Positions 6,386-54,159 of a stretch of DNA of 64,000 nt are shown in pieces. Positions within the stretch are counted from its first letter, which is position 1; each line of letters starts with the position of its first letter. Origin of the DNA: a virus; IMG/VR virus record IMGVR_UViG_3300045988_180769, positions 32,001 through 96,000 of that record. One strand, given 5' to 3'. The notes under the pieces are model-generated. The model was not told where the DNA came from and ran no database searches. It saw nothing but the letters and a program-made list of their open reading frames with translations. The position numbers and the translations under genes were made by a program.

Positions 6386-7816
6386 TTAAATTCTTTCAGC
6401 CTTTTTTAACTTCGTTTCTTTTTTTTGTTTATCATCTTTCTTTTTGACTGGATGATAATTGGTAAAAAGTTCTCTTGTTCTTCCTTTATTGCAAAATCTT
6501 CCTCGATCATAATCTGTTGCAATAGGAATGATTTCTTGAGATCCTTTATAATCTCGAATCTTGTCAACATATACTCGTAAAACAGATTGCTTCAATTCTT
6601 CTCTTGTTTGATTTCCAGTTAACACAAAAGAAAATGGCTTCACTAATGTCTTGTCTCCTTCAGTATAACTTCTATCAATCACTTTATCAGAATTATCCCA
6701 TATCTCTATAGGAACGTTACTTGCCTGTGTTGCAGTAACTCCAACCATTTTAAACTCCACACAAATGTTTTTGAATAATTGAGCACTTGTTTGAAGTTTA
6801 TCTTTTTTATATGCAGGATTCGTATCAATAATTTTATTTATTCCTGTTGCTACAAGATCTAACGAGTCCATCACCAACACTTTTGGAAAGAAACCATGTA
6901 CTTTGCCATAATCAAGAACAAGGTTTCTAACATCAACCATCGTTGCTTCTCCAAACTTCTCAAAACCATATACATCAATGTCTTGACCATATTCAATCAT
7001 AGACCTATATGATTGTGTAACCTTCTTTTGATCTTCTGCTTTTAAAAATCCCTGTCGAATATCGTTAAACGATTGATTCGTCCAAAACTGATCATACTTA
7101 TCCAAACATGCCTGTACACCACCTTCTAACTGAATATGTAACACTGGATTGCCATCTAACGCTGCAGCCATAGCCTGATATCTTAATGCTGTCGACTTTC
7201 CTATTCCAGACCTCATTATCCATAGAACAGTATCTTCACAGAGAGCACCTCCATATGCGAGATCGTCTAATTGATCTATTCCAAAAGTAATCTTTATAGG
7301 TGTTTGACTTGTTTCAATATTCTCTCGTCTTTTTTTCATTCGAGTATTGAAATTTCCAAACACTTTATGAAAATTTCCTCCATCGTGTCTTAATGAAAGA
7401 GATAGTATTCTTTGACTTTCTTCAGCGTTAACTCTTATAGCTTCATCTTTTTTACCATCTTCGTATAAATCATGAACTTTCTTTGACAATAATTGAAACT
7501 CAATATCTTTTATGTATGACTCAAGTTGATCTATTATTATTTCTCTATCAACTTTTGCAGCTTTATGTATTTCATCAATCGACTCTTGTACAAAGTCATT
7601 GTCAATATATTTCTGTGAAACAACTCCTAATGATGGAACTGTTTCTTTCTTTGTGAAAATTTCAATTGCTTCTCGAAGAAGATATTTATATCCAGACCAT
7701 TCTTTTGGTATTAATTGATATGTTAAATTGCTCACAGCTATCTGTGTCAATACTGGATCGAGATAAATCAATTTAAAGAGTTCAGCCATAAAATTGGCTG
7801 ATAATTTCTGTGCCAT
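6386..7816 (-). CDS. DnaB-like replicative DNA helicase
   Basis: RecA-fold C-terminal half with Walker A MRSGIGKSTALRYQA, Walker B-like VLVMDSLDLV and TATQASN. Helicase-primase gene pairing. Confidence 0.75.
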   Translation of the reverse strand: MAQKLSANFMAELFKLIYLDPVLTQIAVSNLTYQLIPKEWSGYKYLLREAIEIFTKKETVPSLGVVSQKYIDNDFVQESIDEIHKAAKVDREIIIDQLESYIKDIEFQLLSKKVHDLYEDGKKDEAIRVNAEESQRILSLSLRHDGGNFHKVFGNFNTRMKKRRENIETSQTPIKITFGIDQLDDLAYGGALCEDTVLWIMRSGIGKSTALRYQAMAAALDGNPVLHIQLEGGVQACLDKYDQFWTNQSFNDIRQGFLKAEDQKKVTQSYRSMIEYGQDIDVYGFEKFGEATMVDVRNLVLDYGKVHGFFPKVLVMDSLDLVATGINKIIDTNPAYKKDKLQTSAQLFKNICVEFKMVGVTATQASNVPIEIWDNSDKVIDRSYTEGDKTLVKPFSFVLTGNQTREELKQSVLRVYVDKIRDYKGSQEIIPIATDYDRGRFCNKGRTRELFTNYHPVKKKDDKQKKETKLKKAERI

Positions 7817-7817
7817 A

Positions 7818-10523
7818 TTATATTAGAGTTATTCCAACTTTGACTTCTTTTTCATCTTCTCTCAAACTATTGATTGCTAAAAATGCACTCATGGTGATAT
7901 CGTCATGTCCTGAACTTGCTTCGAGTTTACCATTATCACTTTTAAATGTAATAGAAGCAAACTCTCCAAACATTATTTCCACTGCTTGTTTTGTTTCTCC
8001 AGGAGCATATGGACATTTGATCTGTCCTCTTTCAAACATTGCTGAAAGACTTGGCAATCCAGTATAAAGATCCTTTTTATTTCCTTCAGTTGTTGTAAAT
8101 GGCTCTATATTTTTTAATCCTCTTTCTTGTGCCAATCCTGATAATATGGACTGAAATCCATTCGCTTCACATATAATTTTGTTTGGTCTAAAAAGACGAT
8201 CAAGTTGAACAATCTTATCTACCTGCTCATTATGAGACATTCCTTTTTGCCTATAATAATAAAGTAAATAGAAGTTCTTCATTGCATCAATGCCCCAAAC
8301 TGAATAAACAGTATAGTCAGCACCAATATTACCAGACACAGCAAAGTCAACACCAATATGAACTCTTGTCAACTTGATTGGAAATTCATCTATTGAACTC
8401 GCAAACCTTATATTCTCCATTCCAACAATACTTCTCATAAGGTATTCATATGGAAAGATCGTTGAAGAGTCACTAATTGGAACAACTAAATATTCTCGAT
8501 TGAATACAATTGTTCCAAGTTCTTCTTTCTTTTCGAGTATCTGTGAAAAAGTAAATCTATCTGGTGCCAATGGACGTCCATTTGGAAAGACGATTGGATA
8601 TTCAAAGCAATAAAATCGTTTATCTGCTTTTAATAATTGATACAATTCATTAGGAGCTGAAGAGAATGGAGTTCCACAAATAAGAAAATATCCATAAGGT
8701 TCTACGATAGGCTCTATTGTACCTTTTAAAAGCTCTTTCATCTTTTCTCTCTGTTCATCTGAATAAAGAGATGATTCATCAGGCATGTCATCGCATAATG
8801 CAGCTCCAACATGAAGACCTCGAATAAATCCATCCTTACCACGAACATGAAGAATTGAACCAGTTTCTGTTGTGATACCAGTCTCACCAATAGACGCTTT
8901 ATTGTTTGGATTTAACTTTTCCTTAATAAGATCATTTGTTTCAATTTCTTCTCTCACTTTGGCAACTTGTACTTTCGCCAGTGTCATCGTAGAAGTGATG
9001 TAACAAGTTTCCTTTCTATTGGCATTATCTATTGTATCAGGTCTCCAAACAGTTGGTCTACAATAACTCCACAATCTCCATAATATAAAAGCATAAGACC
9101 ACTCAAAACTATTGTGAACTACTGTTCCATCTTTATGAAGATATAAATGATCACCATCAAGATAAAAACCATAGAATTTTGTTCTCTCACCTTTGGTAAC
9201 TTCAATCTTTCCTCTTCTATAGTCTTGTCTATAATGAATCTGATGAGCTCGTTTTCTCTCGACTCTTGTTGGAATTGTATGTAAATCCAATGAAATTCTT
9301 AATTCGTCTCTACTAAATCCTTTTATAGTTCGTGAGCTTAAAGAAGTTCTAAATCCTAAAGACCAGGCTAAATCTTGAACTTGTTTAATAAAACTTCCTG
9401 ATTTTAAAGTTAATTCAAAAATAGTTCCTGTTGAACTTAAATGTCCATCTGTATCAAGTATTCCTGCTAATAATTGAAGTCTCTGCTCTCGAGAACCTCT
9501 CATATAAATATCAGGAATATGTTTATTATTCAATACATTAAGCTCTCTAAGAACATTCAAAACTGGATTAATCTCTCCATGTTTTTGTTCAACATTGGTT
9601 AAAGAATATTCGTATTTGTTTTTTAATTTGAATAATTTCATTCCAAGTGATTCTGCATACTCTTTCCAAGCATCTATAATTTCTATATCTGCAGAAGTCA
9701 ACTTTGTACAATTACTATGTCTATCTCCTAACCAAGTTCCAAAAATATATGGATCAATAGGAAGTGATTGATCAGAAAGCTCCCAACCATTAATTCTGTA
9801 ACCATATAATCTTTTTTGTTTTGATCTTGGAAGATCATAAAAATCCTTTGCTGAAATTTCAACTATTTCTTGTCCATTCTTTCTATAATTTCCATGTCCA
9901 TATTCCATATATCCAAACTTATCTTTTTGTAGATGAAGTATGTGTCTGGAATTAACAACATAATCTAATCCATGTTTTTGCTTAATATGATAAGAATCAT
10001 CTTCACATACGTGAGTTTGTAGAACTACTCGAGGTGTCGAATCGACACCCATCACTTTATCTCCTACTTTAATATCTTCGATCTTTTTTAAAGACCCATC
10101 AAACATTACAACTTCAGTTCCAGCGATCTCTGTTTTTCCACTTGCTCTACTACACAAGTAACAGCTCCATGGAAAAAGTTGTGTTAAATTTCCCCATTCA
10201 ATATTTCTCCATCCCATTCTGAACTTTGGGAGCATTGTTGTTTTGAAATAATTGAACGATAAAATTTTAAGCGTAGAATCCATTGAAGATTTTACATTCT
10301 CAACATACTCAAGATTCTCTGAATCAAGTGATTTACCCAGATATAACGCTCTTTCTGCCTGTGTTGTCATTTCTTTTAGCATCGCATCAACATCATTATC
10401 ATATCCTTCCATGAGTTGATATAATGCTTTTCCAGGAAGAGCTTCAATTACTTTATCTATTGTATCACATAAATAATTGAGTTGTATGTTTGAAAGTAAG
10501 TCTTTTCCATCAGGTGTTAGCAT
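7818..10523 (-). CDS. terL: terminase large subunit interrupted by an intein in the P-loop
   Basis: Walker A CSRASGKT is followed by a 340-aa Hint/LAGLIDADG insert. After the insert come terminase blocks: LHVGAALCDDMPDES (Walker B region), ICGTPFSS (coupling motif), and the nuclease blocks IGVDFAVSG, ICEANGFQ and GHDDITMSAFLA. Confidence 0.85.
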   Translation of the reverse strand: MLTPDGKDLLSNIQLNYLCDTIDKVIEALPGKALYQLMEGYDNDVDAMLKEMTTQAERALYLGKSLDSENLEYVENVKSSMDSTLKILSFNYFKTTMLPKFRMGWRNIEWGNLTQLFPWSCYLCSRASGKTEIAGTEVVMFDGSLKKIEDIKVGDKVMGVDSTPRVVLQTHVCEDDSYHIKQKHGLDYVVNSRHILHLQKDKFGYMEYGHGNYRKNGQEIVEISAKDFYDLPRSKQKRLYGYRINGWELSDQSLPIDPYIFGTWLGDRHSNCTKLTSADIEIIDAWKEYAESLGMKLFKLKNKYEYSLTNVEQKHGEINPVLNVLRELNVLNNKHIPDIYMRGSREQRLQLLAGILDTDGHLSSTGTIFELTLKSGSFIKQVQDLAWSLGFRTSLSSRTIKGFSRDELRISLDLHTIPTRVERKRAHQIHYRQDYRRGKIEVTKGERTKFYGFYLDGDHLYLHKDGTVVHNSFEWSYAFILWRLWSYCRPTVWRPDTIDNANRKETCYITSTMTLAKVQVAKVREEIETNDLIKEKLNPNNKASIGETGITTETGSILHVRGKDGFIRGLHVGAALCDDMPDESSLYSDEQREKMKELLKGTIEPIVEPYGYFLICGTPFSSAPNELYQLLKADKRFYCFEYPIVFPNGRPLAPDRFTFSQILEKKEELGTIVFNREYLVVPISDSSTIFPYEYLMRSIVGMENIRFASSIDEFPIKLTRVHIGVDFAVSGNIGADYTVYSVWGIDAMKNFYLLYYYRQKGMSHNEQVDKIVQLDRLFRPNKIICEANGFQSILSGLAQERGLKNIEPFTTTEGNKKDLYTGLPSLSAMFERGQIKCPYAPGETKQAVEIMFGEFASITFKSDNGKLEASSGHDDITMSAFLAINSLREDEKEVKVGITLI
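9111..10133 (-). mobile_element. intein with LAGLIDADG homing-endonuclease domain inside terL
   Basis: Block A-like (T)EIAGTEVVMFDGSLKKIEDIKVGDKV. Block B VVNSRHILHL. LAGLIDADG motifs YIFGTWLGDRHS and LLAGILDTDGHLS. Blocks F/G KFYGFYLDGDHLYLHKDGTVVHN followed by +1 Ser. The N-terminal boundary is ambiguous (Thr131 or Glu132). Confidence 0.8.
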
Positions 10524-11188
10524 AATTGAAAACTTTCTCTGTATCGAACAGTTTTTTCATTCATTAATTCACTTTGTCCTTCTCCTCTCAATTTCTTGAT
10601 GTATGATATTAGAAGTTCAGCATTCGCATCAACATCATTCTGTGCTCTATGAGCATCAACGAGATCGACACCTGCCAATTGACAACAAGTTCCCAACTTG
10701 TAATCCATTTGCTCTAACGCTGAAAGATGAGCTATATGCATTGTATCAAGATAAAACTTCACATACCTATCAATATCATCTCCCATAAATTTAAAGAAGT
10801 TTTTGAGGAAAGCATTATCAAAACTAACAATATTGTGACCAGCTAAAGTGCACATTTGTCTTGGATTTTTGTACTTTGTAAACCAATCTCTACATGTTTT
10901 AAAAATCTCTTTCAATGGAACTGAATTCTCATCTTGTGTTTCTTTTGTTATTCCATGTACTTCTAATGCCTGTTGAGAATAAATTAGACCTTCTTTATAT
11001 CCATAAGGAAAAATCATATCAACTCGATCGATAATCTCTAATTTTCTCAGATCAATACAAGACATTGCTATTTCAACACATGGTGAATTTTCGAATGCAA
11101 TAATATCTTTAGTACAAAGATTTCCTGTTTCAAAATCGTAAACGATTACATAATTACAACTACTCTTCATATACTTTATTATTTTCAT
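10517..11188 (-). CDS. DEDDh 3'-5' exonuclease (DnaQ/epsilon-like)
   Basis: ExoI VIVYDFETGN, ExoII LAGHNIVSFDNAFL and ExoIII HRAQNDVDANAELL. An alternative ATG at 11170 is possible. Confidence 0.8.
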   Translation of the reverse strand: MKIIKYMKSSCNYVIVYDFETGNLCTKDIIAFENSPCVEIAMSCIDLRKLEIIDRVDMIFPYGYKEGLIYSQQALEVHGITKETQDENSVPLKEIFKTCRDWFTKYKNPRQMCTLAGHNIVSFDNAFLKNFFKFMGDDIDRYVKFYLDTMHIAHLSALEQMDYKLGTCCQLAGVDLVDAHRAQNDVDANAELLISYIKKLRGEGQSELMNEKTVRYRESFQLC

Positions 11189-31912: not shown

Positions 31913-32689
31913 TTATAATATATTAGCGATTGATGCAGCTAAATCATTCACACCTTTTTGAACAACACCTGCTGCACAGATTTTTGTTAATGCTGTTTTT
32001 GCTTTCGCTGAACCAGCCACAGCATCGAGTGGAGCGATTGCTATCATTGTTAAATTGTAGTCCCAAATCATGTTCTTATTCAAGTTTTGAGAAAACGATA
32101 TTCCTGATGGAGGAACGACAACCAAGTAACTTTCTCCAAGAGCGAGATTATAAAAATACAATCTTAATGGCAATCCAGTTTTATCTACACCACTACTTTT
32201 TGATATAATACCTTGTAACATTTTGATACATCCAAATCCAGTTTTGATACCAGCATCAAAGGCTGGTGTTTGAAGACCAAAAGTACTTTTTCCAGAAATG
32301 GATGTCAATGAATATTTTCCTGCTGATAAACTATAACCAGCTCCTGTCACACTACTCATTCCTCCACCAATAGACAACAATATTTTAAATGTCCTACCAA
32401 AATCACCTCTTATATTGATTTCTTGTGGAGTAAAAGTTGGAGTACTCATTACTGTGATACCACCAGCTGTGTTTCTAATTGTTTCTCTTTTAGGATCTGT
32501 TTTTGTAATGTTGTTTGGATTTATTGGAAATGTGAAAAAGTCTATTGTATTGCCTTGTGAATCAGCTAATTCCAGAGTACAAAGATACACCTCAAAATCA
32601 TTTGGATATTGAGATGCTAAAATTGCTCTACCTGCTGTTTCAATAATACCTGCTGCAGTTTTGATCGCAGCACTCGCTATATTTGCCAT
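31913..32689 (-). CDS. baseplate-module protein, possibly a tube-fold/tube-initiator-like protein
   Basis: FFTFPINPNNITKTDPKRETIRNTAGGITVMSTPTFTPQEINIRGDFG resembles the N-terminal strand pattern of contractile-system tube-family proteins. Lies between the spike-like and J-like genes. Confidence 0.35.
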   Translation of the reverse strand: MANIASAAIKTAAGIIETAGRAILASQYPNDFEVYLCTLELADSQGNTIDFFTFPINPNNITKTDPKRETIRNTAGGITVMSTPTFTPQEINIRGDFGRTFKILLSIGGGMSSVTGAGYSLSAGKYSLTSISGKSTFGLQTPAFDAGIKTGFGCIKMLQGIISKSSGVDKTGLPLRLYFYNLALGESYLVVVPPSGISFSQNLNKNMIWDYNLTMIAIAPLDAVAGSAKAKTALTKICAAGVVQKGVNDLAASIANIL

Positions 32690-46047: not shown

Positions 46048-47559
46048 TTAGATACCTTCGTCACCAATGTTAACGATACGAACGATCTTAGCAGGTTGAT
46101 ACAGAACTGGAGTTCCATAATTCAAAATTGCAAATCTACGAGAAGGAGCTGTGATAGCAAAATCCATCTTCATAGTATCTGCGAATTGCAGATATTCATT
46201 GATCTGGTTATCGTTGTAATAAACAAGAGCTGATTTCGTACCAGCGATAATACGATTACGATCGCGAACACAATTGGCTGCAGCTCCATCATAACCATTA
46301 GCCAACTGAGCAACTGGAACTTCAAAAATTGGATAGTAATCAGTTGTGTCATTCAATGCAGCATCTTTCTTGGTACGATAGATAACAAAACATGTTGCTG
46401 CATACGCTCCACCTGTACCTGCTGTAAATCCAAATTCAACTGATTCTGTACCAGTTACAGCCTGTGCTACAGTAGTGATATTCAAAGGAGCTGATTCACC
46501 ATAACGATTTTTTGCAGTTACCAAATAACCATAAGTACCAGCATGTTGACCAAAGTTTGTCTTTGTATCACCAGCATTTACTTTAATCGCTGTACCAGCT
46601 ACAGGAACAACAGGAGCTTTTGGAGAAGTTGATGTTCTGTTTACTTTGATAGGTTTGCGCTCGTCAAAGAATCGGTCGTTCTTGATATTAATCTTACCAA
46701 ACTGAGTGGTAACATCATTTACAGATTGACCCATCGTTGCACCAGTTACAGATGCCTGAAGACCTACGATAACTCGTTTGCTTTCATGGAACAACTGCAC
46801 ATAGTTATTAAATACAATAGGATTAGAGATGATACGATCAATATAACCATTATAAACATTAACAACTACATTAGAAGCATCTTGAATCAACTTGTCATTC
46901 AAAACCTGATTCTGTGCATTAATTACAGCAGGTGAATTGAAATATGCATCAAGTAACTGTTCAGAAGTCTTACCTTCAGCAGTACCACCATCCATTTCAT
47001 TTACACCCAACATATGCTGTCTAAAGATACCATCGAACTGTTCAGGAACACAAGTAGAATCAGCATCTACCAAACGAGTATCAATCAAAGTCTGTAACAA
47101 GATAGTCTTGTTTTCAACTTCTTTTGTATACATATTCATACCACCAGCCAATCGAGCCAACATCGCAGGATGAGTAACTTGACCAGTCACACCCATGAAC
47201 TTGGTGATGATTGACTTACGTCTGTATTGAGAATCTGTCTCTTCAGGTGTCTCACCTTCAGTATTGAAAATACCAATGTTTTCACCATATTTGTACAACT
47301 GATTGTACTGATGAACTGTATTGTCAATCTTGTGTTTGGGCATTTCTTGAAAATAAACCAACTGATTGAGTCTATTACCAAGAATCTTCAAAACAGAGTC
47401 CAAAGATTCAACTTTCAGACCACCACCATTGTTGATCTGGTTGTTGTATTGCATACCAGTCTCAAGACCAGCTTCCATTGCTTTCAAGATGTCTGATGCT
47501 GCAATTCCATCCATCAAATCGACACCTGTACCACTGTTAGTATAATTGTATAAATCCAT
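46048..47559 (-). CDS. major capsid protein
   Basis: 503-aa ORF in the canonical order protease-scaffold-capsid. A promoter candidate lies upstream of the scaffold gene and a strong terminator downstream of this gene. Confidence 0.7.
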   Translation of the reverse strand: MDLYNYTNSGTGVDLMDGIAASDILKAMEAGLETGMQYNNQINNGGGLKVESLDSVLKILGNRLNQLVYFQEMPKHKIDNTVHQYNQLYKYGENIGIFNTEGETPEETDSQYRRKSIITKFMGVTGQVTHPAMLARLAGGMNMYTKEVENKTILLQTLIDTRLVDADSTCVPEQFDGIFRQHMLGVNEMDGGTAEGKTSEQLLDAYFNSPAVINAQNQVLNDKLIQDASNVVVNVYNGYIDRIISNPIVFNNYVQLFHESKRVIVGLQASVTGATMGQSVNDVTTQFGKINIKNDRFFDERKPIKVNRTSTSPKAPVVPVAGTAIKVNAGDTKTNFGQHAGTYGYLVTAKNRYGESAPLNITTVAQAVTGTESVEFGFTAGTGGAYAATCFVIYRTKKDAALNDTTDYYPIFEVPVAQLANGYDGAAANCVRDRNRIIAGTKSALVYYNDNQINEYLQFADTMKMDFAITAPSRRFAILNYGTPVLYQPAKIVRIVNIGDEGI

Positions 47560-52407: not shown

Positions 52408-54159
52408 TTAATGCATTTGTAAACGATACTTGGTTTGCATCAAATCTCCAAGAAAATCTTCAATCCAAGACATTTCACCAAGATAATCAATATTATCTTT
52501 TATAACCTCATGAAAATCTTGTGTTCGCTTAATAATCAAATCTACAAGTTCTATAGGATCATTCACATTAATTTCTTCACCTACAATTTCACCTTCTTTA
52601 AATCGACCAAACTTGCTTTGACCTGCTTCCATCACTCGATCTTCGTAATCAGAAAGTGTATCTTCGAGATCATCGAGATATTCATGTTTAGAATTATCTA
52701 ACTCACCCCAATGAACATTCTTTGTACGAGTTTTTGCTCCTTCAATAAAATTAGCAAAATCAGCAAATAAACCAGACATCATGTCTTCAGCTTTTTCGAT
52801 TGTCTCAACAGAATCAATATCAAGTTTACCAGACTTTTTCATTTCATTAATCAATGATTTAAACATATCAGCCTGATCAAGATCGTTGAAGTTAATTGTC
52901 AATGAAAAACCATTTGTAGACTTTTTAATACCATCGTCATCTGGTTCTTTTTCTTTATCATCAAGATGTTCTTTACAGATTGTATTTGCATCGTCACAAT
53001 CCATTGTCTTTTCAACATCATCGTGATCGCCCCAACTTTCAGGAAGTTCATCTGTAAGTCCAAGTTCTTTCGCTCTTTTCTTAATCCATGCCTTTACTTC
53101 ACTATCAGGCATTGAAGAAGCTCCTACAAGTCGTATAGCATCTTTTAGATCTTGACTGTTGCGAATTGGATATTTTCCATTTGACATCGCTTCGCCTTTC
53201 TTGGCGAGATCTTTTCTTTCTTTATGAGAAAAATATGTCTTATTGTTAGCTTTTTCAATCTCCTCAGGATGTTTGTCACAATATGCTTTGAACACATTCT
53301 GTGAAATTACACCATCATTGAAAGCTTTTTGTATTTTCATCAAAGGACTGGGTTGAATTTCAAGTCCAAGAATTCTTTTAAGATTATCCTTCATATCAAA
53401 AATGAAATCATAATCGTCCAATTCTGTTCCAGGATAAATCCATTCAGCTCCAATTTCCTCTTCGCTATCAACTAAAACTGTTGTAGGAGAATCGTCATCT
53501 ACATGACCCATAAAATAATGAATGATGCAATCTTTTGATTCAGCGACAGCAACTTCCATTAATGTATCTTCTGGTACTTCAATTCCTGTCTCTTCAAAAA
53601 GTTCTCTACATGCTGCTTCACGATAATCTTCACCAGCATCTACATGACCTCCAGGAATGCACCATTCTTGTGTATTTCCTCCCATAACACCAGCTCTCTG
53701 TAAGATCAATAATTTATCTCCTCTAAAAAGCAATACGTCTGCATAACGAATCTTTCCAGTCTTTGCTTTAATGATATCGTTATATACAGATTTTGAAATC
53801 CTTTTGTTTTTGTAGGATTGTTTTGCATCATGAAGAATTTTCAAGTCAACAATTGCATCGAAAATCTCTTCATCGTTTTCAAGTCTATTCATCGACTTTT
53901 CAATCTGTGATTTTTCTTTTTGCAACTTTGCTACTTTCTTTGCATGTTCTGTCAAAAAGGAGTTATGTCGATCTCGAACTTCTTTTCTCTCTTCAGTTCC
54001 TAAAAGCGATATACTCTTTAAGATTTCACTTTGTTCAAGAAATTCCTGAGACATTTCTTCAACTTTATTGTCAATGTCTACAGACTTCTTCAATAATACT
54101 TTGTATTCACCAATCTTCTCTTGTGCTGATTGGAGATTTAATATTTTTCTGATATTCAT
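52408..54159 (-). CDS. multidomain protein: coiled coil, Nudix hydrolase domain, C-terminal Dps/ferritin-like domain
   Basis: Nudix box GGHVDAGEDYREAACRELFEETGIEV (about 53585-53660). The C-terminus KNVHWGELDNSKHEYLDDLEDTLSDYEDRVMEAGQ...EMSWIEDFLGDLMQTKYRLQM follows the Dps helix pattern (HW...H...D..(A)E...W(m)L). Confidence 0.75.
   Translation of the reverse strand: MNIRKILNLQSAQEKIGEYKVLLKKSVDIDNKVEEMSQEFLEQSEILKSISLLGTEERKEVRDRHNSFLTEHAKKVAKLQKEKSQIEKSMNRLENDEEIFDAIVDLKILHDAKQSYKNKRISKSVYNDIIKAKTGKIRYADVLLFRGDKLLILQRAGVMGGNTQEWCIPGGHVDAGEDYREAACRELFEETGIEVPEDTLMEVAVAESKDCIIHYFMGHVDDDSPTTVLVDSEEEIGAEWIYPGTELDDYDFIFDMKDNLKRILGLEIQPSPLMKIQKAFNDGVISQNVFKAYCDKHPEEIEKANNKTYFSHKERKDLAKKGEAMSNGKYPIRNSQDLKDAIRLVGASSMPDSEVKAWIKKRAKELGLTDELPESWGDHDDVEKTMDCDDANTICKEHLDDKEKEPDDDGIKKSTNGFSLTINFNDLDQADMFKSLINEMKKSGKLDIDSVETIEKAEDMMSGLFADFANFIEGAKTRTKNVHWGELDNSKHEYLDDLEDTLSDYEDRVMEAGQSKFGRFKEGEIVGEEINVNDPIELVDLIIKRTQDFHEVIKDNIDYLGEMSWIEDFLGDLMQTKYRLQMH

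Follow-up and report, generated by a model that had tools for sequence, protein, structure and literature searches.

Inteins in the P-loop of phage large terminase subunits (TerL) have been described from mycobacteriophages, in which they are splicing-competent and endonuclease-active, the inteins examined all use Cys (class 1 Cys1 or class 3 WCT), and the intein of TerL1-a interrupts a 'classic' insertion point between the invariant Lys and the next Ser or Thr (Kelley et al. 2016, PMC5050341). Class 1 inteins have been defined as Ser1, Thr1 or Cys1 inteins (PMC5222942); the class 3 paper of 2010 recorded Thr1 in no known intein (PMC2807308), and a 2014 review listed Cys1 and Ser1 as the only natural nucleophiles of step 1 (PMC4031507). 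Here we describe an intein in the TerL gene of a gut phage, carried on a 64,000-nucleotide stretch of DNA (positions 32,001 to 96,000 of the IMG/VR virus record IMGVR_UViG_3300045988_180769; hereafter the window). With a probability of about 0.75, we consider it a functional, mobile class 1 PI-SceI/Prp8-like intein at the GK|S site (the bar marks the junction) of the sole TerL of this phage, in which Thr replaces Cys as the first nucleophile. Like TerL1-a and TerL1-b of the mycobacteriophages, it lies in a phage TerL, at what is by its junctions the 'classic' P-loop site, and is present or absent between related phages. Unlike these, which are found in terminase_1 type proteins and have a Cys initiator, it starts with Thr, lacks the WCT residues and resides in a Terminase_6C-type TerL.

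The limits of the insert were set by comparison with the 120 best TerL homologues, of which 47 have no intein at the site, 39 have a Cys1 intein, 33 a Thr1 intein and one a Ser1 intein. All 47 intein-less homologues are exactly 560 aa long and read ...G[SG]GK|S[FY]xxSYAF, and removal of T131..N471 from the window protein (...WSCYLCSRASGK|TEIAGTEVVMFDGS...LHKDGTVVHN|SFEWSYAFILW...) likewise leaves exactly 560 aa, placing the intein between Lys130 and Ser472 of Walker A (CSRASGK|TEIAGTEVVMFDG at the N-terminal junction), in frame and at a conserved host site. The host protein is a large terminase of the Terminase_6 type, with a Terminase_6C nuclease part and a Walker A motif, SRASGK|S, that is back after excision; source names among its relatives include 'phage terminase large subunit-like protein'. 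The Cys1 forms at this site comprise full-length inteins (in proteins of 912-931 aa) and 144-aa mini inteins (in proteins of 704 aa). A preliminary description of this DNA, made from the letters alone, had proposed a terminase P-loop intein at 9111-10133 without Cys or Ser at position 1, whose splicing would regenerate a GKS P-loop, and this was borne out by the Pfam domains, the fold and the GK|S alleles: together with the excision length, these alleles make 9111..10133 the exact intein and Thr131 (ACA) its position 1. The same description had hesitated between Glu132 and Thr131, of which only the latter stood. Thr131 shares its alignment column with the Cys1 of CMSADTLVVMYDG, CLSINELVVMYDG and CFAKGTKVVMFDG in Cys1 relatives at the same site, and the Hom_end_hint match begins with profile position 4 at residue 134, so that profile position 1 falls on residue 131. 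Glu132 as position 1 (GKT|E...S|F junctions) was excluded by the Cys1 column alignment and the HN|S junction, and because residue +1 must be a nucleophile.

A HINT fold with blocks A, B, F and G was recognised by Pfam, structural modelling with AlphaFold2 (AF2), Foldseek and the positions of the blocks. Pfam assigned Hom_end_hint (1.5e-15, residues 134-200), LAGLIDADG_3 and Hom_end to the middle of the 901-aa protein and Terminase_6C to its C-terminal part. Modelled by AF2 together with 10-residue flanks (pLDDT 88.3, pTM 0.88), the intein gave PI-SceI (1ef0/1jva/1vde; TM 0.75, E 8e-24) as its top PDB matches in Foldseek, ahead of the TliVMA and PI-PfuI inteins, while Prp8 mini-inteins (splicing part) and I-DmoI (endonuclease part) matched partially; the closest solved chains by sequence were the Cryptococcus Prp8 inteins (E 7e-15) and PI-SceI. 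In addition to being the best structural match, PI-SceI of Saccharomyces VMA1 shares with the window intein the Hom_end_hint domain, the nested LAGLIDADG endonuclease and a near-identical block A pattern. One Cys1 intein at the same TerL site (L020) reads CFAKGTKVVMFDG, close to what we take to be the start of PI-SceI, which presumably has the NxxH of block B and the F:4 Gly as well. However, PI-SceI forms a thioester with Cys1 and Cys+1 in a eukaryotic V-ATPase, whereas the window intein interrupts a phage terminase, combines Thr1 with Ser+1 and has no Gly43. The fungal Prp8 inteins of Cryptococcus neoformans and C. gattii (6mx6, 6owu, 6mwy), which we take to be Cys1 inteins, align over blocks A, B and F/G (KWSGFVVDKDSLYLRYDYLVLHN|S, compared with KFYGFYLDGDHLYLHKDGTVVHN|S in the window) and also have Ser+1, but differ in TxxH in block B, in Gly at the equivalent of position 43 (RGEE) and in the host protein.

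For wider comparison, ~16,400 relatives were found and 150 of them taken in; 291 inteins were extracted (260 unique), near-duplicates were removed, columns with >50% gaps were trimmed, and a tree of 214 non-redundant inteins (199 Cys1, 6 Ser1 and 9 Thr1) was built in FastTree. The residues of the window intein agree with class 1: position 1 is one of Cys, Ser or Thr, B:10 is His64 (conserved in 9/9 Thr1 and 199/199 Cys1 inteins) with Asn61 at B:7, and the C-terminal end is VVHN|S, with His340 and Asn341 in 9/9 Thr1 inteins and Ser+1 in all, so that His64, His340, Asn341 and Ser+1 are invariant across the nine. Class 2 (Mja KlbA, Ala1) and class 3 (MP-Be DnaB, WCT) inteins, the latter frequent in phage TerL P-loops, resemble it in having neither Cys nor Ser at position 1. 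Unlike these, which have Ala, Pro or Gln there and, in KlbA, Cys+1, it has a hydroxyl residue: residue 1 is Thr and residue +1 is Ser, contrary to the KlbA type, and the WCT triplet of class 3 is absent, with Leu66 instead of Trp at B:12, Gly at F:4 (FYGFYL) and Val339 at G:5. The canonical C-terminal end, the NSRH of block B and the missing WCT residues had all been read correctly in the preliminary description, which had also taken NSRH (rather than TxxH) and the Gly at F:4 for oddities; in this they are not exceptional, since B:7 is Asn in 186 of the 199 Cys1 relatives and F:4 is Gly in the window intein and in all relatives in the printed alignment, as is the norm of the PI-SceI-like family. 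The predicted nested LAGLIDADG endonuclease has two motifs with a catalytic acidic residue, WLGD(268R)HSN and LLAGILDTDG. Residue 268 gives WLGDRHSN in the window copy alone and WLGDGHSN in the 14 nearest cluster members; judged from this change of Gly to Arg beside the catalytic Asp, the endonuclease of the window copy may be starting to decay.

That the true codon is Cys or Ser, masked by a sequencing or assembly error or by recoding, has a practically negligible probability. The same protein sequence is found on 4 contigs and members of its 90%-identity cluster on dozens of others; one such member, present on 26 contigs, has an NCBI entry under the name 'Terminase large subunit'. The intein starts with Thr in 42/42 listed members of three clusters. 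Thr1 is carried by 23 distinct N-terminal 60-mers and encoded by two codons, ACA (window, L003, L044, L045) and ACG (L001, L002, L047, L048), from each of which a Ser codon is a single change away and a Cys codon two or more. A pattern scan of IMG/VR for a K-T-E-x-A-G-T block gave 3 loci, and most copies come from Logan and ENA assemblies. Sequencing error is thus excluded at the assembly level, because independent assemblies from several sources all give Thr; the open reading frame is open without any recoding, and at the junction, where the preliminary description had named a Cys or Ser codon as its refutation, these assemblies read ACA or ACG throughout.

In the tree, the nine non-redundant Thr1 inteins form one exclusive clade (support 0.86), nested among inteins of the TerL GK|S site that start with Cys or Ser; Ser1 variants arose repeatedly within the same allele family. 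The clade covers two TerL lineages, a gut-phage lineage (...GSGK|T) and a second one (ARGHGK|T; P0124 and P0271), each of which also has intein-less GK|S alleles. Inteins of the second lineage are 43-46% identical to those of the gut phages, and the minimum identity to the window intein is 43%. Between Thr1 members, the intein dN/dS is 0.08-0.26 at a dS of 0.25 to ~1.7. On these alignments, Thr1 is real and kept by selection across the clade. Position 3 of the intein is Cys in some Thr1 and Ser1 inteins (TTCAGT, TECAGT, SHCRDT; P0030, P0033, P0032 and P0076) and Ile in the window copy.

The extein of the Thr1 allele P0003 is 99.1% identical to that of an intein-less allele and 99.3% to that of a Cys1-bearing allele, and the extein of P0004 is 99.6% identical to an intein-less one. 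Conversely, the inteins of P0030 and P0033 are 100% identical although their exteins share only 74.9% identity, and between the window and L003 dS is 0.25 for the intein and 1.75 for the extein. By this comparison of sequences, the intein moves between TerL alleles. Three states of the site, empty, Thr1 and Cys1, occur in 99%-identical exteins (P0003, P0034 and P0072; P0004 and P0088), the Cys1 type there being ~45% identical to the Thr1 type; within one phage population, a single homing site is thus contested by two intein lineages.

Loss of the endonuclease was also seen. The P0032 cluster (45 members, on ~104-kb contigs) has a deletion of LAGLIDADG motif 1 and DSKG as motif 2, and in P0002 both catalytic Asp residues are replaced; all of these retain Thr1, NxxH and HN|S, the pattern expected if the phage needs splicing rather than homing. 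This bears on whether the insert splices at all. A decaying intein or a permanently inserted domain, with TerL either dead or working with the insert in place, would fit the literal GxxxxGKT that Thr1 leaves in the unspliced precursor, and the private Gly-to-Arg change in motif 1 of the window copy. We nevertheless regard it as very improbable. The genome of 105,941 bp is complete (direct terminal repeats, CheckV 100%) and gives one match to Terminase_6C, which leaves the phage with a single TerL. The dN/dS is far below 1, with purifying selection centred on the splicing residues, and decay of the endonuclease while these residues stay invariant is the reverse of what a domesticated DNA-binding insert would show. 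Presence and absence in 99%-identical exteins, together with the same intein in divergent exteins, point to a selfish mobile element whose hosts survive.

We infer the chemistry of splicing by Thr1 as follows. In the first step, the hydroxyl group of Thr1 would attack the carbonyl of Lys130 in an N-O acyl shift assisted by Asn61 and His64 of block B, to give a linear oxyester. Transesterification would then move the N-extein onto Ser+1, cyclisation of Asn341, assisted by His340, would free the intein, and a final O-N shift would provide ...SRASGK-SFEWSY..., and with it a 560-aa TerL whose Walker A again reads GKS. Thr at position 1 is chemically competent, since the Tli Pol-2 intein still splices as an S1T mutant, according to work of 1992 as cited in PMC2807308. 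On the strength of that citation, and of a class 1 definition that includes Thr1 (PMC5222942), the preliminary description went too far in speaking of a missing canonical nucleophile and a non-standard route; Thr has a hydroxyl group. The parallel is with an engineered mutant of an archaeal Ser1 intein in which Thr supports splicing experimentally, whereas the window intein belongs to a natural, selected and mobile clade. The cysteine-less class 1 inteins that combine Ser1 with Ser+1 (Thr+1), namely Psp Pol-1, PolB16 OarG and Mvu-M7 Pol-3 (Pasch et al. 2023, PMC10189870), would share with it oxyester chemistry at both junctions, but start with Ser.

Which hydroxyl attacks first is not told by the sequence data, and Thr1 might instead be purely structural, with Ser+1 directly attacking the Lys130-Thr131 bond to form a branched intermediate, as Cys+1 does in the Ala1 intein Mja KlbA; direct attack by Ser+1 was one of the options raised in the preliminary description. 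The block B Asn and His, which are also required by class 2 inteins (PMC4031507), are compatible with this scheme. It is unlikely, however, because, although synonymous divergence is saturated, position 1 is Thr without exception and never Ala, Val or Gly, any of which would be tolerated if the hydroxyl were irrelevant. Moreover, the class 2 inteins of PMC2807308 and PMC4031507 have Cys+1 and form one KlbA orthologue group, and for a Ser hydroxyl to attack an amide directly would be chemically harder than both known routes.

The Thr1 inteins differ from their relatives in a strand upstream of block B. When residue 43 was counted by offset over distinct N-terminal 60-mers, Gly was found in 318 of the 321 Cys1 or Ser1 relatives (Cys1, 297 with Gly and 3 without; Ser1, 21 and 0) and in none of those with Thr1 (0 and 23). 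In the Thr1 inteins of the gut-phage branch this residue is Cys, and those of the second lineage have Ile or Val instead. As the repeatedly arisen Ser1 variants keep Gly43, its loss is tied to Thr specifically; as there is one Thr1 clade, the loss may be a single historical event that was maintained, not many independent replications. Three further residues are enriched among the non-redundant Thr1 inteins: Glu44 (9/9 Thr1 vs 17/199 Cys1), His41 (9/9 Thr1, 4/6 Ser1 and 53/199 Cys1) and His67 at B:13 (8/9 Thr1 vs 12/199 Cys1). For the Thr1 intein and a Cys1 sister (L005), AF2 modelling gave identical three-state DSSP assignments around positions 34-52 (E44-62 in both).

His41 sits 23 residues ahead of the block B His. 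This spacing, rather than structure, is the ground on which it may be equated with the His of the NX motif in Psp Pol-1. [K/R]53-His54 was dropped as an NX motif co-varying with Thr1, because the second Thr1 lineage has Gln-Gln there and the spacing to block B favours His41. The NX motif consists of [Lys/Arg]-His upstream of block B and a Glu on the preceding strand, and its His is specific to Ser1 inteins (PMC10189870). A His of this kind is enriched in hydroxyl-initiated inteins, but in the inteins of Pasch et al. it always follows Lys or Arg, whereas His41 follows Thr40.

Several points weigh against Thr1 as the first nucleophile of an active intein. Both splicing and this role of Thr1 are deduced from sequence, and a Cys thiol is a better nucleophile than a Thr hydroxyl. 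Loss of the near-invariant Gly43 from all Thr1 inteins shows a changed active-site neighbourhood with room for another route, and in the gut-phage branch a conserved Cys occupies the vacated position. Natural Thr1 was, in addition, unobserved in InBase up to 2009 (PMC2807308). An alternative route would be class 3-like, with Cys43 as a new internal site that attacks the N-terminal junction first and then passes the N-extein to Ser+1. The gut-phage Thr1 inteins (7/9 non-redundant members) conserve no Cys other than Cys43, which replaces a residue that is Gly in 297/300 Cys1 and 21/21 Ser1 relatives, and lies on the same strand as His41, two residues after it. But P0124 and P0271 keep Thr1 with Ile or Val at position 43, and this route appears quite unlikely to us. 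A broader proposal, which the sequences leave possible but which we hold only tentatively and think doubtful, is that the Thr1 inteins are a mechanistically distinct sub-type, in which a Thr nucleophile would need a remodelled strand (Gly43 to Cys, Ile or Val, with Glu44, His41 and His67) that might act as a transferable 'Thr1 signature'; in its extreme version, Cys43 of the gut-phage branch would itself be the first nucleophile, in a new branched-intermediate route.

The coordinates of the intein, its host gene and the neighbouring genes are collected in Table 1.

Table 1. Positions in the window of the TerL gene, the parts of its intein and surrounding genes.
Feature	Position	Strand	Basis or remark
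TerL precursor gene, 901 aa	7818..10523	-	stop-free open reading frame; Terminase_6C at residues 723-886 (Pfam)
N-extein, residues 1-130; CSRASGK of Walker A (10134..10154) at its end	10134..10523	-	alignment with intein-less 560-aa homologues
Intein, 341 aa, T131..N471 (positions 1-341), HINT with nested LAGLIDADG endonuclease	9111..10133	-	Pfam, AF2, Foldseek
Thr1 codon ACA (Thr131), proposed N-terminal nucleophile	10131..10133	-	ACA or ACG in relatives
Block A, TEIAGTEVVMFDG, intein 1-13	10095..10133	-	column-for-column with CMSADTLVVMYDG and CFAKGTKVVMFDG of Cys1 relatives
Strand segment T40-H41-V42-C43-E44, co-varying with Thr1	10002..10016	-	Cys in place of near-invariant Gly43
Block B, N61-S-R-H64-I-L-H67-L; B:7 Asn, B:10 His, B:12 Leu	9930..9953	-	
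LAGLIDADG motif 1, PYIFGTWLGDRHSN	9711..9752	-	catalytic Asp present; private Gly-to-Arg directly after
Codon of residue 268	9720..9722	-	
LAGLIDADG motif 2, LLAGILDTDGHL	9438..9473	-	
Blocks F and G, KFYGFYLDGDHLYLHKDGTVVHN; F:4 Gly, G:5 Val, His340 penultimate, Asn341 last	9111..9179	-	
C-extein: Ser+1 (Ser472, AGT, 9108..9110), SFEWSYAFILW, nuclease domain to stop	7818..9110	-	
RNase T-like exonuclease	10517..11188	-	overlaps TerL start
DnaB-like helicase	6386..7816	-	phrog_19, 3e-35; begins directly past TerL stop
Major capsid protein (MCP)	46048..47559		~36 kb from TerL
Giant open reading frame, 3766 aa	19702..31002	-	adjacent to the next
Giant open reading frame, 1812 aa	14209..19647	-	no match in PHROG search at 1e-5
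583-aa open reading frame	52408..54159	-	Nudix/MutT hydrolase segment, residues ~113-230, 6e-17; weak match over this stretch to a PHROG with the annotation portal protein

By MCP and TerL, the closest cultured relatives of the phage are the Bacteroides phages DAC16-23 and SJC03 (33-35% identity), followed by SPO1-like Bacillus phages, and a label as crAss-like phage, for which genome size, gut origin and Yutin 2021 had spoken, was dropped because the best cultured relatives of both proteins lie in these groups; unannotated phage records from human faeces match MCP and TerL at 57-71%. TerL is flanked by replication-type genes instead of head genes (6386..11188, minus strand), and the order exonuclease-TerL-helicase is kept in relatives. 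Outside the window, the same genome carries a second PI-SceI-like intein in the P-loop of a helicase-like protein (locus L049, G000:C1:11288-12373, minus strand), with the junctions ...VVDATAG|CLGKDTNILMYDGS...FTITHN|SGKTTTIVE..., a canonical Cys1 and Gly43, so that a single phage holds a Cys1 and a Thr1 intein.

Our literature search, which had most subscription journals outside it, found no description of a natural Thr1 intein, only generic figure legends of the form 'Ser1, Thr1 or Cys1'. The natural Thr1 clade of a class 1 LAGLIDADG intein at the TerL P-loop is a new variant of a known intein type. For annotation, intein finders that demand Cys or Ser at position 1 will misplace Thr1 junctions. 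Cysteine-free inteins are wanted for protein ligation under oxidising conditions (PMC10189870), and a Thr1/Ser+1 intein would extend this toolbox. That Thr1 and the loss of Gly43 strictly co-vary provides a concrete, testable hypothesis, and the Cys1 and Ser1 sisters, at the same site and in nearly identical exteins, form a comparison set for what the use of Thr needs in the active site. For the phages themselves, the Thr1 clade is abundant, mobile and under selection, and resides in an essential gene.

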